Shown one piece after another: positions 445 to 45,011 of a stretch of DNA of 64,000 nt. The number at the start of each line of letters is the position of its first letter. Within the stretch, counting starts at the first letter, position 1. The notes under the pieces are model-generated. The model was not told the origin of the DNA. It worked only from the letters and a program-made list of their open reading frames with translations, and did not search any database. The DNA is from a bacterium (lineage in GTDB: Bacteria; JADJOY01). Both the position numbers and the translations under genes were made by a program. The stretch lies in contig JAXLQJ010000002.1 in the NCBI GenBank assembly GCA_046331705.1, positions 78,370 through 142,369 of the forward strand, given 5' to 3'.

Positions 445-2130
445 TCACGCGAGATACGTCTTCATGTAGCGGTCCATCTCGGACGTGGGCTTCCACCACT
501 TCCTGACGCCGAGATCCTCGGCGACGCTGTTGGCGCCCAGATATCCGGGCCCGCCCAGCACGAGCCCGCCGGGATAGGTCGACACGCCGCACACGTAGAG
601 ACCTTCGATCGGGGTGCGCGTGCTCGAGCAGTGCTCGTTCGGGCGGTAATAGCCCATCTGCAGCGGTCGATAGTCGCCGTGCTTGATCGAGCCGCGCCGC
701 ATGTGCGGAAAGCGGATCTCGATGTCCTCGGGGTCCTCCATCGAGCGGCTGACGATGTTCTCGGGCGTGAGGTTCGGCGCGGCCTTGCACCACTTGGCGA
801 GGATCGCTCGCTGGATCTCGTCGCGACGTGCGAGCCATCCGCCCTCGAGATCGTATGGGGCGTGGAGCTGGAACATCGAAACGTATTTCCCGGGCCGGTC
901 GCTCAGCGTCGGATCGAATTGGCTCTCGCAGGTCGAATGTCCGCCGAAGGCATTCAGATCCAGCTTGCCCTGGGCCACGTTCCCCCAATGCGCCAGCAGC
1001 GAATCGACGCCTTCGATCCCCACCACGGTGGCGAAGGCCTGATCGATCCAGGGGTCGTCCGAGCGGTACTTCGGGCGCTCGTTGGCGGCGATGTGAAGCG
1101 TGTTGAAACTCCACTTGTCCCATGCCCAGCCCTTCACCGAGTCCTTGAGCGCGGGCGTGAGGTGAGCCTCGCCGACCAGGTCGAGGAAGGTGGTGTGCGG
1201 ATCGAGCGTCGACATCACCACCTTGGCGCGCAGCTCGCGGTCCTCGTGGAAGAGATGGACGCCGACGGCGCGGCCGTTCTCCACGAGGATCTTGTCGACG
1301 GTGGCGGCTTCCAGGATCAGCCCGCCCCCCTTGAGCACCTGCCGTCCCAGGGCGCTCGCGAACTTGTGCGAGCCGCCGTAGCAGTAGCATTTGTTCATGG
1401 CGCGATCGATCATCAACGGCACCATGAAACCGAGGCCCGTCTCGCGAGGATCGAGCCCCCACATGCAGCTCGCGTAGAGCAAGAGCGCGCGCACCTTGTC
1501 GTGCTCGAAGGTCTCGGTGATGAGCTCGAGCGCGCTCTTCTCGCCCAGCTCCAGCATCTCTTGGCCGACCTTGGTGCGCTGCATCGCCATGGTGATCTCG
1601 ATGGGCGCCATGGGAGGGATGTAGGTCGCGGGCGCGATGATCTCGTCGACGATCTTGCGCCACTGGCGAATGACCTTGCCGAACCTCACCGAGTCCTTGA
1701 ACGAATACTTCGCGAAGGAATCCTTGGTGTCGTTCGCCATCTTGGCGAGCAGGATCGAGCGGCCGTCGTCGAACACCATCCCGGTCTGGCAATTCGGCCG
1801 GATCCAGGTCAGCGCCGGCCCGTCGAGGCCGAAGTCCCGGATGGCGGGCATGTAGTCCACCATCATGTGGTAGAGCACGTGCGGGTTCGACGAATAGCAG
1901 GGATAGAGATTCTCCTCGGTCGCGAGCCCACCCCCGGCCTCGAAGCGGCGCTCCACCACCGCGACGCTCAAGCCCGCCTGCGCGAGGTAGGCGCCGGCGA
2001 TGAGCCCGTTCGGTCCAGCGCCGATGATGACCACGTCGAACTCGCTTCGCTTCGGAAACTCCTCTTGCATGTGTCCGAAGGGATCGGACGGGTCGAACTC
2101 GAACTCGGACGTGTAGTTGAACTTGGGCAT
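445..2130 (-). CDS. FAD-dependent oxidoreductase, phytoene desaturase (CrtI) family, paralog 1
   Basis: N-terminal DVVIIGAGPNGL dinucleotide-binding motif and C-terminal RTPIEGLY motif; AGGACGAGG RBS before ATG (MPKFNYTSEF). Track ORF 445..2238 trimmed to this start. Confidence 0.8.
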   Translation of the reverse strand: MPKFNYTSEFEFDPSDPFGHMQEEFPKRSEFDVVIIGAGPNGLIAGAYLAQAGLSVAVVERRFEAGGGLATEENLYPCYSSNPHVLYHMMVDYMPAIRDFGLDGPALTWIRPNCQTGMVFDDGRSILLAKMANDTKDSFAKYSFKDSVRFGKVIRQWRKIVDEIIAPATYIPPMAPIEITMAMQRTKVGQEMLELGEKSALELITETFEHDKVRALLLYASCMWGLDPRETGLGFMVPLMIDRAMNKCYCYGGSHKFASALGRQVLKGGGLILEAATVDKILVENGRAVGVHLFHEDRELRAKVVMSTLDPHTTFLDLVGEAHLTPALKDSVKGWAWDKWSFNTLHIAANERPKYRSDDPWIDQAFATVVGIEGVDSLLAHWGNVAQGKLDLNAFGGHSTCESQFDPTLSDRPGKYVSMFQLHAPYDLEGGWLARRDEIQRAILAKWCKAAPNLTPENIVSRSMEDPEDIEIRFPHMRRGSIKHGDYRPLQMGYYRPNEHCSSTRTPIEGLYVCGVSTYPGGLVLGGPGYLGANSVAEDLGVRKWWKPTSEMDRYMKTYLA

Positions 2131-2152
2131 GGCCGAGCCTCGTCCTTTCGCC

Positions 2153-3877
2153 TCAACCGCGCTTCGCGGAGATCTTGCCTTGCTGCGGGATGTACCAAGG
2201 CGACGCGTACCACCAGTCGCCCGGCTCGGCGATGCCATCCTCGATGAGGATGTGCATGAGGTTGTAAGGGATCGCCATGAGGCAGAGCCCGCCTGGGTGC
2301 CCCGAGGTCTGATGCGCGTGGTAGAGGCCCTCGATCGGCGTGCGATAGCGCGCCAGCTCCTTGATCGGGCGGTTGGTCCAGAGCTGATCCTCGTCGTGGC
2401 GGCTGCCGCACCAGGTGCCGCCGATGAGCCCGGTGTTGCGGAACTCGACGTCGCGACCGGTGGCGCTCCAGTGGTGGATCAGGTTCGCGTCGTCCAGGCC
2501 GTCCACCATCTGGCCATACGCGGCGCGCATGTACGCATCCATCTCGGCCTTGTAGCGATCGAGGGCGTCCTCGCCTTCCTTGTGGAGGTCCGGCGACGTC
2601 ACCGCGACCTCGAAGGCGTTCGAGACGTAGCCGCGCCGATAGCTCGCCTGGCAGTCGGTGGGATCGAACGTCTGCGGCGGCGCGTGGAACCACATCACGC
2701 GCTCCGCCGGCACCACGGGTTGCCCTTTGTGCCCGTCCACGTCGGCGACGTTCTCGTAATAGATCTCGCGCGAGTCGCACGGATAGACGCCGAGCTGCGG
2801 GGTGCGCGCCGGACCCGCGCCGATACCTTTCGAGTCCGCGTGGGAGGCGAACTTCGCGTTGAGCCGGAGCGGCGTCTTGGTGTGAAAGACCGACACGTAG
2901 AGCGTCTGGTTCTTGAGGCTCACGTCCTTGATCTTCTGGATCACGCCCGGATCCAGGTGCTTCGGGCCGACCATCTTCAGGAACGCCTGGTGCACGTCGA
3001 CGGCGGCGATGACCGCCTTGTTCGCGCGGATGGTGCGACCGCCCATCGCCGCGGTCTCGCGGAGCCGCACGCCGATGGCACGACCATCCTCGATCAGGAT
3101 CTCTTCCACCGGACAGCAGGTGCGGACCATCGCGCCGTGGCTCACCGCAGCGCGATGGATCGCGTGGAAATAGCCGTGCAGACCGCCGCGCGGGATGCTG
3201 CGGTTCCCGGTGTTCGGAAGGGTGAGAAGCTGCACCGACGTCACCGCCGGGATCGCGACTCCCTCCCAGTGGCCCGCCGCCCCCGACGCCCAGGCCGCGA
3301 ACGCCATCGCGGTCTTGAAGTGCTCGGTCTCGCAGTGCTCGTCGAGCAGATCCAGCATCGTCATCTCGCGCAGCTCGTGCGTCCAGATGTCGGGCTGGTG
3401 CTGCTTGTAGACCTGCATGTACGGGACGTTGTCGTCCGTGACTTCCACCTCCGGCGGGTGCGGCGGGCACCAGAACGTCGCGCGCATCAGGTCGCGGGTG
3501 AAGGGCGGCGACCCCAACAACCCGCCGAGCTTCGCCCAGCCGAGCTTGTCGGTGTCGGAGATGGGCCGCCAGCCGTCCGTGCAGGCGAAGTCGGTGTTTT
3601 CCGTGAGCACGTCGTGGGGAGACCAATTCATGCGGAAACCGTGCTTGTGGAGCTCGAGCTGCTGGAAGCCCGGCGCCGGCGACGCGTACATGAGCATCGC
3701 GTGCGGAAAGATCCGCACGCCCGGGATCGGCTCCTGCGTCTCGCAGGCGCCGCCGCACTCGGTGCGCTCCTCGAGCACGCACACACTCAGGCCGCACTTC
3801 GCGAGGTACGCCGCCGTGGTCATGCCATTCGGCCCAGCGCCGACGATCACGATGTCGAACCGTTCGTCCTTGGCCAT
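2153..3877 (-). CDS. FAD-dependent oxidoreductase, phytoene desaturase (CrtI) family, paralog 2
   Basis: MAKDERFDIVIVGAGPNGM N-terminus with GGGAGG RBS; C-terminal RTPIEGLY motif. Track ORF 2153..4117 trimmed. Confidence 0.8.
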   Translation of the reverse strand: MAKDERFDIVIVGAGPNGMTTAAYLAKCGLSVCVLEERTECGGACETQEPIPGVRIFPHAMLMYASPAPGFQQLELHKHGFRMNWSPHDVLTENTDFACTDGWRPISDTDKLGWAKLGGLLGSPPFTRDLMRATFWCPPHPPEVEVTDDNVPYMQVYKQHQPDIWTHELREMTMLDLLDEHCETEHFKTAMAFAAWASGAAGHWEGVAIPAVTSVQLLTLPNTGNRSIPRGGLHGYFHAIHRAAVSHGAMVRTCCPVEEILIEDGRAIGVRLRETAAMGGRTIRANKAVIAAVDVHQAFLKMVGPKHLDPGVIQKIKDVSLKNQTLYVSVFHTKTPLRLNAKFASHADSKGIGAGPARTPQLGVYPCDSREIYYENVADVDGHKGQPVVPAERVMWFHAPPQTFDPTDCQASYRRGYVSNAFEVAVTSPDLHKEGEDALDRYKAEMDAYMRAAYGQMVDGLDDANLIHHWSATGRDVEFRNTGLIGGTWCGSRHDEDQLWTNRPIKELARYRTPIEGLYHAHQTSGHPGGLCLMAIPYNLMHILIEDGIAEPGDWWYASPWYIPQQGKISAKRG

Positions 3878-3930
3878 GAAGCCTCCCAGACTCGTCCCGT
3901 CACCCCACCGATCGACCGCCCCGGCGCCCG

Positions 3931-5559
3931 TCAGACGTAGCCCGCTTCTCGAGCCGCCGTGACGTACGTGGGCTCCGTCCACCACTTCGCGATCGCGAAG
4001 TCCTCGGCGATCGCGTTCGCGCAGTTGTAGCCAGGCCCGAAGATCACCATCCCCCCGGGCGCCGCGCTCGCGCCGCCGAGGTAGAGCCCCTTGACCGGCG
4101 TTCGATATTGCGAGCACTCCTGGTTCGGACGCAGGTAGCCCATCTGCAGCGGGTGGTACGCACCCTGCTTGTAGCTACCCCGCACCATGTTCGCGAACTT
4201 GTTCTGGAGGTCGGCAGGAGTCGTGAGATACGTCCACAACACGGCATCCTTGGTGAGGTTCGGAGCGTACCGACGAAGCACGGCGAGCTGCCGCTCGGCG
4301 GCCTCCTCTCGATACGCTCGATTCAGCCAACGTTCGGATCCCCCGTTCGCCAGCTCGAATGGCGCCATCTGGGAGATCAGTCCCGAGGCTCTCCCCGCGG
4401 GGGCTTGAAACGGATCGTGCCGGCTCGGAAAGCAGCAGTTGAAACCCGCGGCGTCCGGCATCTCGCCCCGCCCCATCGCATCCCAGTGGCTTTTCAGATC
4501 CGCCAGCGACTCGTAACCGAGGACGTAGATGAACGCGTCGTCGATCTCCGGCTCCTTCTCCGCGGCGGTGAAATGCGGCTGCTCGGCGAGGGCCAAGTGC
4601 TGGACGGCCAGGCTCCACTTCTCCCACTGCCACACACGCAGCATCTCGACGAACTCCTCGTCGAGCTTCTCCTCGCCCACGTACTTCAAGAAGGTCTGAT
4701 GGGTGTCGATGGTGCTCACGACGGCCTTGCTCGCCGCGTAGCGCGTCCCGTCCACGAGCTCGACGCCCTTGGCGACGTTGTTCTCGACCACGATCCGAGC
4801 GATCTGCGCGTTGGTTCGGATCTGACCCTTCTGCTCGAAGATCGATTTCAGCAGCGCTCCCGACACGCGGTGCGAACCGCCCACCGTGAGGCGATAATTC
4901 GCCATGCGATTCAAGTAGATCGGCACCATGTAGCTGACGCCCGACTGCGAATAGTCGAGCCCCCAATGACACGCCATGTAGAGCATCAGCGTTCGCACGT
5001 GCTCGTTCTCGAAGAGCTCGCAGACGATCTCTTCCGGCGTCTTCTCCGTGTACTCCGAGAGTGCTCGGCCGAGCTCCGTCATCTCCGCCCGCGCCGCCAT
5101 GAGCGGCGCCGCGTCCATCGGCACGTACGTCTGCGGCCCCAGGATGTGAGTCATCAGCTCGCCGAAGCGACGCTGCATGTCGCGGTAAGTATCCGCGTCT
5201 CGTCTCGAGAACCGAGCGATGGAAGCGCACGATCGCTCGACGTCGTGGTGAATGCAGAGCGCTCGCCCGTCCGCGAGCGGCATCGCGACCTGAAGCTCGG
5301 GGCGGATGTGTCGAACGCCGTATCGCTGCTCGAACTCGAAGTCCGAGTAGACCGGCGCGTAGTCGACCATCATCATGTAGACGGCGTGGGTGTTGTGATA
5401 GAAGTCCGGCAGCGTCACTTGCTCGGTGCAAAGGCCTCCTCCTGCTTCGAAACGTTTTTCGAGCAGCAACACCTTCTGCCCGGCCTTGCTCAGATACGCC
5501 GCGATGGCGAGCCCGTTCGGACCGCTTCCGATGACGATCACGTCGTAGACTTGCGTCAT
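3931..5559 (-). CDS. FAD-dependent oxidoreductase, phytoene desaturase (CrtI) family, paralog 3
   Basis: MTQVYDVIVIGSGPNGL N-terminus; C-terminal RTPVKGLY motif; 542 aa ORF. Confidence 0.8.
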   Translation of the reverse strand: MTQVYDVIVIGSGPNGLAIAAYLSKAGQKVLLLEKRFEAGGGLCTEQVTLPDFYHNTHAVYMMMVDYAPVYSDFEFEQRYGVRHIRPELQVAMPLADGRALCIHHDVERSCASIARFSRRDADTYRDMQRRFGELMTHILGPQTYVPMDAAPLMAARAEMTELGRALSEYTEKTPEEIVCELFENEHVRTLMLYMACHWGLDYSQSGVSYMVPIYLNRMANYRLTVGGSHRVSGALLKSIFEQKGQIRTNAQIARIVVENNVAKGVELVDGTRYAASKAVVSTIDTHQTFLKYVGEEKLDEEFVEMLRVWQWEKWSLAVQHLALAEQPHFTAAEKEPEIDDAFIYVLGYESLADLKSHWDAMGRGEMPDAAGFNCCFPSRHDPFQAPAGRASGLISQMAPFELANGGSERWLNRAYREEAAERQLAVLRRYAPNLTKDAVLWTYLTTPADLQNKFANMVRGSYKQGAYHPLQMGYLRPNQECSQYRTPVKGLYLGGASAAPGGMVIFGPGYNCANAIAEDFAIAKWWTEPTYVTAAREAGYV

Positions 5560-5656
5560 GAGATCCCTCGCGCCTCACTCGCGCCTCACGCGCGCCTCTC
5601 GCGCGCGGCGCGCAGCGCCCTCGCGGGGCTTCGCGCTTGCCATCGATGCGAAACGC

Positions 5657-39067: not shown

Positions 39068-39925
39068 TCACCCGGCAGCAGGCGCGGCGAGCTTGTCGAC
39101 GATCTCGCGCATCTGGGCGAAGGCCCGGCGCATGCGCGAGCCGGCGGAAAGCATCTGCGATCCATCGACCAGCACCACGTGGCCGTCGCGACAGGCGGGC
39201 ACGTCGCTCAGCTCGAGCATCTCCTCGCGGTGCTTGGGGCGGAATCGGAACGGATCGCTGGCCAGCAGCACGAGCGCCGGGCTGGCGCTGACCAGGTCGG
39301 CCAGCTCGATCGCCTGCACGGGCTCGCCCTTCGCGGGAAACACGTTGTCGAGGCCGTGCAGCGCGAGGAAATCACTCGCGTACGTCTGGGCCGAGAGCGC
39401 GGCGAACGGGTCCTTGGAGACCAAGCACGCCGTCCGGATCCGGGGCCGACCGCGCGCCCACAGCTTGCTCACGTTCTGCTCGGCACGGATCTCTTGAACC
39501 AGCGCTGCCGCCTGTTCCTCGCGATCGACGAGAATCCCCAGCGTCTCGAGGTTGGCCACCGCCTCCTCGACGGTCTTCACGTGCACGACGAACAGCGGCA
39601 CCTTGCTGCCGAGCTTCTCGAGATCCTCGGCGCGGTTGTGCTCGAGATCGGCGAGCACCAGGTCCGGCATGAGGTCGGCCACCCGCTGCAGATCCAGGTC
39701 CTTCGAGACCTGCGGTCGCTCCAAGCCTCGCACGCGCTCGCCCCGCGGCTGGCCACCACCCTTGCCATTGCCGACCAGCTCGTCGTCGAGGCCCAGATCG
39801 CTGAGCGTCTGGGTGATGGTGGGCGAGAGCGAGACCACGCGGCGGGGATAGCGCAGCAGCTCGCGCCGGGCTCCCGTGCCGTCGGTGATCGAGATGAATT
39901 CGAGCGCAGCGGCCCGTACACCCAT
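39068..39925 (-). CDS. periplasmic-binding-protein-fold protein (BtuF/TroA-like), no obvious signal peptide
   Basis: RRVVSLSPTITQTLSDLGLDDELVG pattern typical of class III solute-binding proteins. Confidence 0.5.
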   Translation of the reverse strand: MGVRAAALEFISITDGTGARRELLRYPRRVVSLSPTITQTLSDLGLDDELVGNGKGGGQPRGERVRGLERPQVSKDLDLQRVADLMPDLVLADLEHNRAEDLEKLGSKVPLFVVHVKTVEEAVANLETLGILVDREEQAAALVQEIRAEQNVSKLWARGRPRIRTACLVSKDPFAALSAQTYASDFLALHGLDNVFPAKGEPVQAIELADLVSASPALVLLASDPFRFRPKHREEMLELSDVPACRDGHVVLVDGSQMLSAGSRMRRAFAQMREIVDKLAAPAAG

Positions 39926-40230
39926 CAGAAACCTCGTCGGGGCGAGCGTCGCGTTTCGAACGGCCCCTGCGTCGTCGATGCCGATCGTGGTCGGTCGCCC
40001 AGGAAGGCTGCGCTCGACCTCGAGTCCATCGCGAGTTTCGCTGATCGCGGACCGGAGTGTTCGCGGATGACGATGGACGCCGCGCGCGCGTCCTGGGCCC
40101 TCGGCGCTTTCCGCTCTCGGCGCTCCAATCGCGTTTCGAAGATACGCGCGCCCCGGGGCAGAAGCAACCGAACGTCGACGCCGCCGACGGGGGGCCGCGG
40201 CCGCGCCGATCGACGTACACTGGCATCACC

Positions 40231-40713
40231 ATGGCCGACGATCTGACGCGAGCCGACGTCCCAACCCTCCTCGCCACGCTGCGCCTCGACGACCCCACGG
40301 CGCGGGATCGCGCCACCGCCGAGCTCTGGGAGCGCTGGTTCGACGAGAAGGGGCCGGATGCGCGGCGGCGGCTCGAGTACGGCACGACCCTGCTCAGCGT
40401 CGAGCGCTTCGCCGAGGCGCTCGCCGTCTTCGAGCACCTGCTGGGCTCGCATCCCGACTTCGCCGAGGCGCACAACAAGCGCGCGACCGTGCTGTTCTTG
40501 ATGCGTCGCTACGAGGACGCCCGCGCGGAGTGCCTCGAGACCTTGCGCCTCAACGACACGCATTTCGGGGCCTGGCAGGGCCTCGGCTTGTGCGAGATGG
40601 AGCTGGGTCATTTCCTGGCCGCGGCGAGGGCCTTCGAGCGCGCGCTCGCGATCCAACCGCACACGCCGCGGAATCGCGAGTTCCTGGACCGCTGCCGCCA
40701 GCAGATCAACTGA
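40231..40713 (+). CDS. tetratricopeptide repeat protein
   Basis: TPR-like helical repeats (AEAHNKRATVLFLMRRYEDA..., GAWQGLGLCEMELGHFLAAARAFERALAI); ORF 40057..40713 trimmed to ATG 40231. Confidence 0.6.
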   Translation: MADDLTRADVPTLLATLRLDDPTARDRATAELWERWFDEKGPDARRRLEYGTTLLSVERFAEALAVFEHLLGSHPDFAEAHNKRATVLFLMRRYEDARAECLETLRLNDTHFGAWQGLGLCEMELGHFLAAARAFERALAIQPHTPRNREFLDRCRQQIN

Positions 40714-40733
40714 GCCTGGAAGGGCTGCGCCCG

Positions 40734-41249
40734 CTATTCGGATCCCGGCGCGCCACCCGCGCCCGGCGCATCGACCAGGAAGTGGGCGTTCGCCGAGGCG
40801 ATGGGTTGCTCGGGATCGCGCTGCCACGCACGCACGAACACGTTGACCACGCGGCGACCCTGCTTGGTGACGTAGCCCTGCGCGCGGACGTCCTCGGGAC
40901 GCGCGGAACGCAGGTAGTCGATGGTCAGATTGATGATCTTCGGCACGCCGATCCCCTCGACGCGCCAGGCCACGGTCACCAACGCGGTCATCTCGAGCAG
41001 CGCGCCCACCGTTCCCCCGTGCAATGCCGGAAGCACGGGGTTGCCGATGAGCCGCTCGCTGAACGCGAGTCGTCCGATCAGGTCCTCGTCCTCGAGCTCC
41101 GCGGACACACCCAGAAATCGCGCGTACGGGATGCCCGCGACCAGCAGCATCGGCGCGCGCGTGCGGCGCGCCTCGGCCACGCGCTCGATCCAGCGTCGCG
41201 TGGTAGCGAGCGCGTCGCGATCGGTGGGGCGCGGCGTGGCGTCGCTCAT
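40734..41249 (-). CDS. PaaI-family hot-dog thioesterase
   Basis: LPALHGGTVGALLEMT motif; start set at ATG 41249 (MSDATPRPT). Confidence 0.6.
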   Translation of the reverse strand: MSDATPRPTDRDALATTRRWIERVAEARRTRAPMLLVAGIPYARFLGVSAELEDEDLIGRLAFSERLIGNPVLPALHGGTVGALLEMTALVTVAWRVEGIGVPKIINLTIDYLRSARPEDVRAQGYVTKQGRRVVNVFVRAWQRDPEQPIASANAHFLVDAPGAGGAPGSE

Positions 41250-41722
41250 GCCGGCCTCCGCGGGCGCCGCGTGAGCATGAAGGCGCCTGTCGCCGAGGCG
41301 ATCGGATCGTCCGGATCGTCGTGATACGCGACGGCGCGTGCGAACGCGACGTGACGGGTGAGTCGATAGCAATCCGCGCGTGCCAGCACGGCTTGGCGCG
41401 CCGTGGCGGGGCGCAGGTAGTCGATCCGAAGGTCGAGCGTCGCCACCGCCGCTGGCTTCACGAGCGCTGCCATCACGGCCATGCCGCACGTGGAATCGAG
41501 CAAGGCGGTGATGACGCCGCCAGCCAACACCCCCGTGATCGGATTGCCCACCAAGTCCTCGCGATACGCCAATCGCATGCGCCCGCCGCCGGGCCACACG
41601 TCGAGAAGCTCGAGCCCGAGCTCGCGGTTGTGAGGAATGCCCTCCATGCAGATCTGCCGCAGGATGTCGAGCTGCGGCAGCGCATCCTGAGGGCGAGCGC
41701 GACGATCGTCTTGCGGGTCCAT
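41246..41722 (-). CDS. PaaI-family hot-dog thioesterase (paralog)
   Basis: ITGVLAGGVITALLDSTCGMA motif; 4-nt overlap with the downstream paralog. Confidence 0.6.
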   Translation of the reverse strand: MDPQDDRRARPQDALPQLDILRQICMEGIPHNRELGLELLDVWPGGGRMRLAYREDLVGNPITGVLAGGVITALLDSTCGMAVMAALVKPAAVATLDLRIDYLRPATARQAVLARADCYRLTRHVAFARAVAYHDDPDDPIASATGAFMLTRRPRRPA

Positions 41723-41757: not shown

Positions 41758-43212
41758 ATGCGCGTCCTACTCGTCCACCCCCACCTCTTCCATCACCCGA
41801 CGGCGACCGTTCCGAGCGGGCTCGCGTGGCTGGCGGCGGCGCTGCGGGCGCGTGGCGCCCAAGTGGCTCTGCTCGATCTCGCCTTCGTCTGGAACCGCAG
41901 CCGCGTCATCCCCGCGGCGATCGGCGAGCTCGAGCCCGACGTCATCGGCATCGGCGTCGCGCACCTCGACAACGAGTGCGCGTTCCACTCGATCACGTTC
42001 CTTCCGCAAATCCGCTGGGTGATCGATCGCATCCGCGCCGCCAGCCGCGCCCCGATCGTGGCAGGCGGCTTCGGCATCACGCAGTGCGCCCGCGACGTGC
42101 TCACGTACCTGGGCCTGGCGCACGGCTTCCAGGGCGGCGACGTGGCGGAGGCGGCGCGCTGGATCGAAGCCGTCGGCGGACGCGACGATCGCGCCGAGGT
42201 GGCCGGCGCCATCCGCTGGACCGGTGCCGCGTACGAGAGCTTCACCGCGGCCGCGCGACCGACCCACGGGCTGCCCATCCCGTGCTCGGCAGCGCACGAC
42301 CTCGTCGACTACTCGCCGTACCGGCGGACGTCGGCTGCGGCCGTGGTGCCGATCGTGCTGGATCGGGGCGGCGTTCCGGCGCGGCGACCCGCGGCCGAGA
42401 TCGCGGACGAGCTCGGCGCGCTCGCCGCAACGCGTTCGGTTTCCCGCGCCTTGCTCGCGGGCCTGACGGTGGGGCTCGATCCCGCCCACGACGACGAGCT
42501 GCTCGAGACCTTGGCGAGCCGTGGCGCGCCGCTCGCCACGGAGATCCAGCTCGCGGCGCGCGCCGCGACTCGCGAGCGGGTCGCGCTGCTGCGCGCCAGC
42601 GGCGCCCGCGCGATTCGGCTGCGGCTCGCGGCGCCGGCCAGCGGCGAGGTGTCGCGCCCATCTCGGCTCGCCGCCGAGCGCGATGCGCTTCCGCGCGCGC
42701 TCGAGCGCATCGGCGGCGCCATCCCCATCCGGCTCGAGGTTGCGATCGGCGGGCTCGACGAGTCGGCAGACTCACTCGCACGAACGCTCGCCCTCGTCGA
42801 TGCGTTGCACCCGCGGCCGGCTGCGATCGAGCTCGTCCCCGGCGTCCGGCTCTGGGACGAGCCCGGCGAGGGCGCCGTCATCCGGCGCGGCGGCTTCGCC
42901 GGTGACTCGCCGATCTGGCCGCGCTTCGGCTTCGCCGCCGAGATCGAGTCGGGCTTGGCGGAGCGCCTCCGGCAGTTCGCCTCGACGCGCCCGGGCGTGA
43001 GCGTGGACTCGACGCCTACGCGCCGTGGCAACGCGTTGCCCACGCGATCGGGCGCCGCTGCGGGGTCTGGCCCGCGTGGCTCGCGGGCTCGGCGCTGGCC
43101 GATCTCCCGAAACGCCTGCGACGCGCGTGTATCGAAAGAGTACCGTTCCGCATGCAGCCGATGTAACATCCGTCGACGCCACGATCGAAACCGAGACGAA
43201 CGTCGAGCATCC
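41758..43212 (+). CDS. B12-binding-domain radical-SAM-like protein lacking the CxxxCxxC motif; 3' boundary unresolved
   Basis: N-terminus MRVLLVHPHLF...GLAWLAAALRARGAQVALLDL resembles the B12-binding domain of class B radical SAM enzymes, but no Cys triad follows; codon bias decays near 43000 yet the frame has no stop before 44298. Confidence 0.4.
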
Positions 43213-44298
43213 ATGGCCTCGCCGACCACGACCACGGTCCTCACGCAGGAAGAGATCAAGGTTCCCTGGAAGCTGTTCCGCGGGAACCATCAGCGCAGCG
43301 GCCAAGTCGCCGCGATGAATCCGGTTCGTCTCACCGGCGTGCGCTGGGAGCTGCGCGTCGGTCGCGTGACGTGGTCATCGCCCGCGATCGACGACGACAC
43401 CGTCTACATCGGCCTCGAGGACGGCGCGCTGCTGGCGGTCGACGCACGTTCCGGCAAGCGCGTGTGGCGATATCGCACGGGCGGCGCCGTGCTGAGCTCG
43501 CCCGCCATCGATGGGGAATTGGTGCTGGTCGGATCCGAGGACCAGAACCTGCACGCCGTCGACCGCAAGGTCGGCGTGGCGCGCTGGACCGCGCCGCTCG
43601 GAAGCGCGGTGACCAGCTCGCCGCTGGTGAAGGGCGGGCGCATCTTCGTGGGTTCGTGGGACGAGAACCTCTACTGCCTCTCGGAGAAGGACGGCGCGGT
43701 GCTGTGGAGCCATCCCACCGGCGGGCGCGTGTGGAGCTCGCCTGCGCTAGCCGACGACACCGTGGTGGTGGCATCGGCGTCCGGCTACATCCTGGCGCTC
43801 GATCCCCGTGACGGCTCACGGAAGTGGCGCTTCAAGGCCCGCAACCGCATCTACTCGACGCCCGCCATCGCCCACGGAATGGTCTTCGTGGGCTGTCACG
43901 ACGGCAACCTCTACGCCATCGACATGAAGACGGGCAAGCGGCGCTACGCGGTGGAGACCAAGGACAAGATCCGGTCGTCGCCGGCGGTCGTGGAAGGCAA
44001 GGTCCTGTTCGGGTCCGAGGACGGGAAGTTCCATTGCATCGACGCGCTGAGCGGCGAGCAGCGCTGGGTCTTCGATGCCAAGGGCGGCATCGACTCGTCG
44101 CCCGCCGTGAGCGGCGACACCGTCCTCTTCGGCACGCTCGCCAACCGCGTGCACGCGCTCGACGTGAACAACGGCCGCGAACGCTGGGGCTTCTCCACCG
44201 ACGACTGGGTCGATTCCAGCCCGGCGCTGTGGGGTCGATTGATCGTGTTCGGGTCGTACGACGGCCACCTCTACGGGCTCGAGTTCGACACCGAGTGA
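43213..44298 (+). CDS. PQQ-like beta-propeller repeat protein (BamB-like fold)
   Basis: Repeated SSPA(I/V)..G.(V/I)(Y/F).G..DG.L.A(V/L)D propeller blades; ATG at 43213 follows an AT-richer stretch; in frame with the upstream ORF. Confidence 0.6.
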   Translation: MASPTTTTVLTQEEIKVPWKLFRGNHQRSGQVAAMNPVRLTGVRWELRVGRVTWSSPAIDDDTVYIGLEDGALLAVDARSGKRVWRYRTGGAVLSSPAIDGELVLVGSEDQNLHAVDRKVGVARWTAPLGSAVTSSPLVKGGRIFVGSWDENLYCLSEKDGAVLWSHPTGGRVWSSPALADDTVVVASASGYILALDPRDGSRKWRFKARNRIYSTPAIAHGMVFVGCHDGNLYAIDMKTGKRRYAVETKDKIRSSPAVVEGKVLFGSEDGKFHCIDALSGEQRWVFDAKGGIDSSPAVSGDTVLFGTLANRVHALDVNNGRERWGFSTDDWVDSSPALWGRLIVFGSYDGHLYGLEFDTE

Positions 44299-44326: not shown

Positions 44327-44638
44327 TCAGTCCTCGCCTTCGCCTTCGTCCTCGTCCAGGAAGAATCGACGCTTGCGGGCGTAGAACTCCTCCAGCTCGC
44401 GTCGCGCCATCCAGAAATCGCCACCATCGAGGCCGACCGCCAGCGCCAGCTCCTTGGCGCGGTTGACGATCGTGACTTGCTGCCACTCCTCCTCGAAGAT
44501 GTCAATCTCGAGTCCGTCCAGCAGCCCGCGCAACGTGCGGCCGAACTCGGCCGACTCCATGTGCGACGCGCGCTGCCGCTGGGTCCCGAGCCAGCTCGGA
44601 TGGGCTCGATCCACGTCCTTGGGGTCGTTCGTGCTCAT
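44327..44638 (-). CDS. small acidic hypothetical protein (103 aa)
   Basis: ORF 44327..44779 trimmed to ATG 44638 (MSTNDPKDVDRAH); acidic C-terminal tail DEDEGEGED. Confidence 0.45.
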   Translation of the reverse strand: MSTNDPKDVDRAHPSWLGTQRQRASHMESAEFGRTLRGLLDGLEIDIFEEEWQQVTIVNRAKELALAVGLDGGDFWMARRELEEFYARKRRFFLDEDEGEGED

Positions 44639-44879
44639 GTTCGATCTCGATTCGCGCGTTCCAGGGTACGAGCGCCGTCGCGGTCGAGCAAGCGACGACG
44701 CCCGTGCCACGGCTCGAGCGCCAGAGGCAGTCGGCGCGGTCTCGCGCGCCGGGCCGCAAGCGCCTTCGGGCCTTCTCACGACCAGGGGCCCATGCTAGGT
44801 TTGCGTGCTTTGCCGAGGCTTCGGCGTCCGATCCGATCGGGTCGTGGGCGCCACTGGATCGCCCGGCTCGGAGGCTTCC

Positions 44880-44969
44880 TTGGGTAGCGTGGTCAAGAAG
44901 CGGCGCAAGAAGATGCGGAAGCACAAGTACAAGAAGCTGCTTGCCCGCATGCGCCACCGCAAGAAGTGA
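44880..44969 (+). CDS. bS22-like small basic ribosomal protein (AURKAIP1/COX24-type), 29 aa
   Basis: TTG start behind GGAGG; encodes MGSVVKKRRKKMRKHKYKKLLARMRHRKK, closely resembling actinobacterial bS22 ([25 protein letters not shown], recalled); below the ORF-track size cutoff. Confidence 0.6.
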   Translation: MGSVVKKRRKKMRKHKYKKLLARMRHRKK

Positions 44970-45011
44970 ACGCCGCGCTTCGCTCTTCCTCGAGGCGCTC
45001 ACCCACGTCAG

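Follow-up and report, generated by a model that had tools for sequence, protein, structure and literature searches.

TsrM, the tryptophan 2-C-methyltransferase, is a class B radical S-adenosylmethionine (SAM) enzyme that works without radical chemistry, and AprD4 is not known to use cobalamin. For the proteins grouped under TIGR04072 ('lipid biosynthesis B12-binding/radical SAM protein') we know of no experimental test of function, and pseudo-enzymes derived from radical SAM enzymes are, to our knowledge, little documented. TsrM retains the three-Cys [4Fe-4S] cluster, Glu273 of the GGE motif, Asp335 of the ribose motif, and the lower-face residue Arg69 (PMC9204698). The locus described here lies on contig JAXLQJ010000002.1 of a bacterium of the GTDB lineage JADJOY01; the whole 64,000-nucleotide (nt) stretch that was analysed is referred to as the window. 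On its plus strand, at 41758..44298, there is an open reading frame (ORF) of 846 amino acids (aa), deposited as MFN7950483.1 under the name 'PQQ-binding-like beta-propeller repeat protein'. It very probably consists of two neighbouring genes joined by a one-base deletion: gene 1, a Cys-less descendant of radical SAM enzymes, and gene 2, a separate propeller gene. Gene 1 belongs to a small clade in which the cluster site has been lost; the literature consulted on TIGR04072 and on cluster-less B12/radical SAM homologs yielded nothing specific on such a clade.

Gene boundaries and the one-base deletion

The sequence-only reading had described a radical-SAM-like protein running without an in-frame stop into a pyrroloquinoline quinone (PQQ) propeller, with a decay of codon bias near position 43000, and had offered three explanations: a genuine fusion, a frameshifted gene or sequencing error, and a pseudo-enzyme followed by a separate gene. 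The description was accurate, as the two parts follow one another without an in-frame stop, and the GC content of third codon positions (GC3) in the ORF frame, 0.86-0.98 over 41760-~43000, falls to 0.64-0.72 at 43020-43200 and goes up again from ~43260, while total GC declines from ~0.77 to 0.66 in the same region. Of the three explanations the second and the third both hold, and the first finds no support.

Alignment to homologs locates the point at which the ORF leaves gene 1: agreement stops after ...GVSVDS, at residue 418, and the 67 codons that follow show, in the ORF frame, no similarity to any homolog. The proteins of five relatives (L001, L005, L006, L008, and L009) follow frame 1 as far as ~43011-43053 and pick up frame 3 of the window at ~42975-43011, and in the frame plot high GC3 moves into the shifted frame at 42960-43080. 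Past residue 418 the homologs read DAYAPW..R.AHA.GRRS..WPAW...LADLPK.LR, which is what the shifted frame of the window encodes; from 43011 onward this frame translates as DAYAPWQRVAHAIGRRCGVWPAWLAGSALADLPKRLRRACIERVPFRMQPM and then reaches a TAA stop. In DNA alignments comprising the window and six relatives (L001, L005-L009), a single G is missing from the window (Table 1).

With the G restored, gene 1 encodes a protein of 469 aa, the last 51 residues of which are the conserved tail of the family with its invariant D.D.Y.PW.R...WP.W motifs. The repaired protein aligns in one frame over residues 1-469 to L006 and L008 and over residues 1-468 to L009. The deletion precedes the natural stop of gene 1 by 51 codons, and a spacer of 46 nt separates that stop from the propeller ATG. 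The 67 codons of the 'linker' combine this spacer with the out-of-frame reading of the gene 1 tail, and the 846-aa ORF is therefore two genes; it was called as one chimera because the frame entered at the deletion is stop-free for 67 codons and coincides with the frame of gene 2. Since a run of this length is common by chance (p=0.27 from base composition; over the window, stretches of 67 codons lack a stop in 54% of cases), the missing stop is unremarkable and constitutes weak evidence.

The second boundary lies at ATG 43213, where an internal start of the propeller had been proposed; MASPTTTTVLTQEE opens every ortholog at the equivalent ATG. The protein read from this codon is matched by PF13570 (E=1.9e-86) and PF13360 (E=4e-55), and when the whole ORF is searched its residues ~520-843 correspond to a PQQ-like/BamB-like propeller (PF13570, E=1.6e-81). 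Two separate genes are present in 8/8 related loci (L001-L003, L004, and L005 from assemblies; L006-L009 from GTDB species genomes).

In a comparison of the window with the proteins of five syntenic loci, gene 1 is the only gene of the ~17-kb syntenic block that is split between frames, which tells against an assembly prone to errors in general. Nor did Pfam reveal any split gene among ten overlapping ORFs on the same strand in other parts of the window; all ten are independent, complete genes. A separate case is found in L009 (6001-7082 of JADJOY010000023.1, a long-read 'tig' contig of a metagenome-assembled genome (MAG) labelled 'Deltaproteobacteria bacterium'), where the propeller is split between two frames near residues 27-38; as this indel lies within that assembly, MAGs of this lineage are not free of indel errors.

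As a chimera of two genes, MFN7950483.1 is not usable as evidence of a protein architecture uniting a B12 domain with a propeller. The immediate value of the analysis is the correction of this database entry; in the longer term the locus offers an example of a pseudo-enzyme with a fixed partner gene.

Fold and lost cofactor sites of the gene 1 protein

A homolog search with residues 1-485 returned MFN7950483.1 itself and three stand-alone proteins of 426-461 aa with 42-64% identity. A profile search of 1.84 billion representatives gave a tight clade (P0001, P0003, P0004, and P0005) at no fewer than 548 bits, to which P0002 was added from the homolog search rather than the profile search. Below the clade the scores fall sharply to at most 170 bits, with hundreds of full-length relatives of 420-490 aa; the nearest cluster-bearing relatives are at or near the TIGR04072 cut-off (P0010 with 377 vs 360 bits, P0006 and P0008 just below).

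Gene 1 encodes a Rossmann/B12-binding-like domain (residues ~1-165), a linker, a degenerate partial TIM barrel (~191-370), and a C-terminal extension. Residues 18-123 score 31.9-33.2 bits with PF02310 (B12-binding) against a cut-off of 32.1, and residues 3-166 match the N-terminus of both TIGR04428 (TsrM-type, E=2.5e-14) and TIGR04072 (E=3.9e-13). Together with the match to the TsrM structure 6wte and the invariant G103-G104, these profiles show an N-terminal Rossmann-type B12-binding domain as found in class B enzymes, in agreement with the sequence-only reading. The AlphaFold model of the protein (pLDDT 93.9, pTM 0.93) has TsrM as its best fold match (6wte, TMq 0.78, E=1e-23), followed by OxsB, AprD4, and MiaB, with probability 1.0. 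The model predicts a partial (beta/alpha)6 TIM-barrel core homologous to that of radical SAM enzymes, and full-length profile matches to cluster-bearing enzymes also indicate this homology.

The cluster motif itself is gone, as had been noted from the sequence: the QTKRGCxxxCxYCxYPxxEG of cluster-bearing relatives gives way in the window to LDR|GGVPARRP. In an alignment of 150 sequences C...C..C occupies columns 529-536 in 141 rows, and all five rows of the clade have a gap there. The clade members from L006-L009 also lack CxxxCxxC, so that the motif is missing in 9/9 clade members; the only invariant Cys of the clade, C74, belongs to the Rossmann domain. Judged from the alignments, the three-Cys [4Fe-4S] motif of an active radical SAM enzyme is absent from the gene 1 protein, and the loss of the Fe-S site by loop deletion is real and clade-wide. 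In three other TIGR04072-like proteins the loop is kept with CxxxCxxC incomplete or absent (P0024, with no Cys there, P0097, and P0052), which suggests independent losses of the cluster site among such proteins.

The remaining cofactor motifs, defined for OxsB, TsrM, and TokK in PMC9204698 and mapped on the 150-sequence alignment, have fared unevenly. The GG motif on beta4 (G103-G104) is invariant in all 150 rows; also preserved are the GE-like G126-x-D128, the GxIxGxxE motif (IGG..E335; iGgPgEt), and the beta6 Arg (R364). The GGE motif is lost (fvDs in relatives, lAGL in the clade of the window), and the ribose motif (g.ds) is replaced; in other words, 2/4 SAM-contact motifs (GGE, ribose) have disappeared and 2/4 (GxIxGxxE, beta6) persist. 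Because the Cys loop, the GGE motif, and the ribose motif are all lost, reductive SAM cleavage by the gene 1 protein is impossible. The downstream cobalamin motif G-x-S/T-x-(R/N/Y), whose residues contact the lower corrin face and the dimethylbenzimidazole (DMB) tail, is missing as well: the clade has G/A-x-G/A-x-A/P where relatives have G-x-S-x-R-N, and the window, with G64-I-G66-V-A68-H69, has neither the Ser/Thr nor the Arg-Asn. Cobalamin binding by the gene 1 protein is accordingly to be regarded as putative, the GG of the DMB pocket surviving while the lower-face residues are lost.

The gene 1 protein derives from the class B, cobalamin-dependent branch of radical SAM enzymes, from a TIGR04072-like group, and has kept a TsrM-like two-domain fold. 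Its product is most likely a non-catalytic binding or scaffolding partner that acts with the propeller, a role suggested by the conservation of the Rossmann domain and the tail and by the strict pairing with the propeller gene.

The most novel of the explanations, which we hold to be improbable, is that the clade is free of the cluster and independent of SAM but still binds cobalamin, forming with the propeller a B12-dependent sensor, carrier, or non-radical enzyme, or else that the deletion is real and has produced a natural Rosetta-stone fusion. In the cobalamin-retaining version, the invariant LDNxC74-A-x-H77 loop, which stands in place of the Arg69 loop of TsrM, could form a new lower face.

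The propeller, selection on the pair and the neighbourhood

Gene 2 has orthologs of 361, 361, and 380 aa in L001, L005, and L004 (96, 94, and 58% identical) with the same Met start, and a genome scan found propellers 92-96% identical in L006-L009, matching over 1082-1083 nt in L006, L007, and L009. Eight [ST][ST]P[AL] blade motifs are readable in the product. Its first 40 residues (MASPTTTTVLTQEEIKVPW...) contain no hydrophobic signal and no lipobox, and the propeller is apparently cytoplasmic. Gene 1 and the propeller gene are paired, adjacent, and co-oriented in 9/9 genomes, and probably form an operon, gene 1 running from 41758 to its TAA and encoding 469 aa once repaired. In L004 the two genes are 18 nt apart in a neighbourhood that otherwise differs. 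The 120 best propeller homologs listed are distant generic repeat propellers, several of them fused to Ser/Thr kinase or PKD domains, and in the loci of distant propellers with 25-36% identity (L010-L015) no B12-like gene was detected in the DNA examined.

These data bear on the first explanation of the sequence-only reading, a genuine functional fusion in which the B12-like domain and the propeller would be meant as one polypeptide with a linker. The continuous ORF agrees with it, and the constant adjacency and common orientation of the genes make a Rosetta-stone fusion biologically plausible. However, not one of the eight related loci is fused, no B12 or radical SAM domain accompanies the propeller in the 120 best homologs listed, and a stop-free run as long as that between the two parts is expected by chance. 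The supposed linker is an out-of-frame conserved tail plus a conserved spacer in which GC3 collapses, and a fusion would remove 51 residues that are among the most conserved of the family. We consider this explanation very unlikely.

It is equally improbable, in our estimate, that gene 1 is a pseudogene decaying across the clade, with the propeller as the only functional product. Gene 1 is the fastest-evolving gene of the neighbourhood (45-68% identity vs 59-96% for the neighbours compared), all its catalytic motifs are lost, and the copy in the window is frameshifted. Its dN/dS is 0.29-0.44 (0.61 vs L004), in comparison with 0.07-0.25 for the flanking thioesterase, tetratricopeptide repeat (TPR), and periplasmic-binding-protein genes and 0.03-0.05 for the propeller in close relatives. 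Against decay, the proportion of synonymous differences (pS) in gene 1 is far above that of nonsynonymous ones (pN; z=4-10), and 8/9 lineages have kept an unbroken ORF of ~1.4 kb despite a dS of ~0.9; for these two reasons gene 1 is, by sequence comparison, a fast-evolving gene under purifying selection and not a pseudogene. The clade also has 80 invariant columns with distinctive motifs (among them LDLxFVWNRS, LDNxCAxH, WPRF, and DxDxYxPW), and the fold is predicted with a pLDDT of 94. The constraint is unevenly spread: the Rossmann domain (61% mean pairwise identity, 53/165 columns invariant) and the C-terminal tail (61%, 11/52) are better conserved than the former catalytic barrel, the least constrained part (44%, 18/180).

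That gene 1 is an active enzyme whose Cys-containing core is intact but masked by a frameshift or a sequencing error has next to no chance of being right. Gene 1 does carry a frameshift, but at residue 418, downstream of the whole core, so that its repair restores only the tail and the stop. Cluster-bearing enzymes align to the window only at gene 1 and in a single frame over 41758-43014, from which it follows that no frameshift conceals such a core and that the window holds no intact paralog; GC3 holds one frame over 41760-43000, and the Cys loop is also missing in 8/8 independent homologs. Programmed ribosomal frameshifting or recoding at ~43011, which would yield the full-length gene 1 protein and to which the correct tail in the +1 frame directly after the lesion would lend itself, is just as hard to credit, because neither a slippery heptamer nor a homopolymer run occurs in GAC-TCG-ACG; the relatives, all of which have the extra G, encode the protein in one frame and share no conserved recoding signal.

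Several points weigh against the interpretation of two genes, one of them a pseudo-enzyme gene, joined by a deletion. The clade is tiny, nine sequences in all, and entirely metagenomic. As dS is 0.6-1.1, i.e., near saturation, absolute dN/dS values are unreliable and only relative ones count. The operon is probable, a physical interaction of the two products is putative, and so is the binding role of the gene 1 protein, any ligand included. Finally, the deletion may be an assembly error or a real mutation, and in the second case a chimeric protein or the loss of gene 1 function may follow; it would then probably inactivate gene 1 rather than create a useful fusion. The lost tail is one of the two most conserved parts of the protein. 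The significance of the clade is that it shows a radical SAM enzyme shedding its Fe-S site by a clean loop deletion, with the fold, purifying selection, and a partner gene retained.

The stretch immediately ahead of the propeller, which overlaps the end of gene 1 in part, is conserved in an unusual way. It is almost invariant as DNA in seven genomes (the window, L001, and L005-L009), while the gene 1 proteins of these genomes are only ~50-68% identical. In the window, L001, and L009 it is coding, in L005, L006, and L008 it lies after the stop, and in L007 its first bases overlap the TGA that ends gene 1. Conservation within the stretch extends to synonymous positions and to the rare codons AGA and GTA. 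No Rfam match, sigma-70 consensus, terminator, or significant RNA fold (z=0.44) was detected in it; of the AT-richer, promoter-like stretch proposed at this place, the lower GC stands and the promoter consensus does not. It probably serves the propeller gene as a promoter, an operator, or a leader. Codon 43127-43129 is TGT (Cys) in the window, whereas in L005, L006, and L008 gene 1 terminates at this place with an in-frame TGA; beyond 43129 the same conserved in-frame sequence runs up to the TAA in all four. Selenocysteine at this position, considered in view of this Sec/Cys-like pair, is unlikely: L001 has CTC (Leu), L007 and L009 differ as well, and conservation that includes synonymous positions indicates a constraint on the nucleotide sequence itself.

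Table 1. Position of the described features in the window, with the sequence or profile that characterizes each of them.
Feature	Coordinates	Strand	Characteristics
Gene 1, undisturbed part (residues 1-418)	41758..43011	+	Cys-less class B radical-SAM-like protein; aligns full-length to P0002-P0005 and L006-L009
Lost Cys loop, codons R203-G204	42364..42369	+	~15 residues with CxxxCxxC absent; nt ~42366/42367
Deletion, one G missing between 43011 and 43012	43009..43013	+	TCGAC vs TCGGA(C/T) in 6/6 close relatives
Spurious 'linker', 67 out-of-frame/non-coding codons	43012..43212	+	TPTRRGNALPTRSG...RDERRAS; GC3 0.64-0.72
True 3' end of gene 1, shifted frame	43014..43166	+	encodes AYAPWQRVAHAIGRRCGVWPAWLAGSALADLPKRLRRACIERVPFRMQPM; stop TAA 43164-43166
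Conserved ~80-nt stretch, overlapping the gene 1 end in part	43130..43212	+	ATCGAAAGAGTACCGTTCCG.A..CAGCCGA.GTAACATCCG...CGAAACCGA...
Gene 2, 361-aa 8-bladed PQQ-like/BamB-like beta-propeller	43213..44298	+	PF13570, PF13360, PF01011
Two 4HBT-type thioesterase genes, divergent from gene 1	40734..41722	-	PF03061 in L001, L002, L003, L005; tblastn synteny
Three tandem paralogous FAD (flavin adenine dinucleotide)-dependent amine-oxidase/phytoene-desaturase-like oxidoreductase genes	445-5574	-	Pfam

Upstream of gene 1, the block 39068-41722 is common to L001 and L005-L009 and comprises a Peripla_BP_2 gene (siderophore/B12-type), a TPR gene, and the two 4HBT genes; in L001 a FUR gene is located near it. 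The 4HBT genes are syntenic with gene 1 in most relatives and are not in the L004 locus, where the upstream block is absent and only the pair of gene 1 and propeller is kept. Downstream, the intergenic region ~44869-44976 separates a small minus-strand gene (44327-44779) from an alpha/beta-hydrolase-like gene (from ~45122); it has 93% identity to L001 across a length of 69 nt, conservation extends to L006 and L007, and no tRNA and no Rfam match was found in it. The oxidoreductase genes at the beginning of the window are three separate genes, not one split gene, because each matches Pfam profiles from position 1.

Comparison with known systems

The best match of gene 1 among solved structures is TsrM (6wte/6wtf), with E=1.4e-12 for residues 3-158, a TMq of 0.78 over the whole model, and a profile E=4e-95. 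In both, a Rossmann cobalamin domain at the N-terminus leads into a partial TIM barrel, and they have in common the GG on beta4, GxIxGxxE, and the beta6 Arg. They differ in that the clade of the window has the Cys loop deleted, AGL in place of GGE, and G-x-G-x-A/P where TsrM has G65-x-T67-x-R69; the NCBIfam score of gene 1 is also only 52.6 bits, vs a cut-off of 500.

The nearest cluster-bearing relatives are those of TIGR04072, with full-length alignments of 90-170 bits. They resemble gene 1 in length (~420-490 aa) and in the C-terminal P.W tail, yet are only 20-28% identical to it and carry QTKRGCxxxCxYC. The cut-off of that family, 360 bits, is not reached by the window (48.8-50.6 bits over residues 2-127), by P0003 (74), or by P0005 (67), the matches of the clade being confined to the N-terminal ~130-145 residues. 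AprD4 (6fd2; fold match with TMq 0.57-0.61) illustrates that the same architecture may lose or change one cofactor site with the fold kept; in AprD4, however, the radical SAM cluster and catalysis are kept, whereas in the clade of the window it is the cluster that has been lost.

Gene 2, for its part, shares with BamB the PQQ-like repeat propeller, but scores 186.7 vs 285.2 with TIGR03300 and 148 vs 423 with NF008351, and has no visible lipoprotein signal. With the PQQ-dependent dehydrogenases it shares the 8-bladed PQQ-like repeats (PF13360, PF01011, and PF13570); it differs from them in its score with TIGR03075 (99.8 vs 480) and in its length, 361 aa, as against the ~550-600 aa of that family with its PQQ and Ca ligands.

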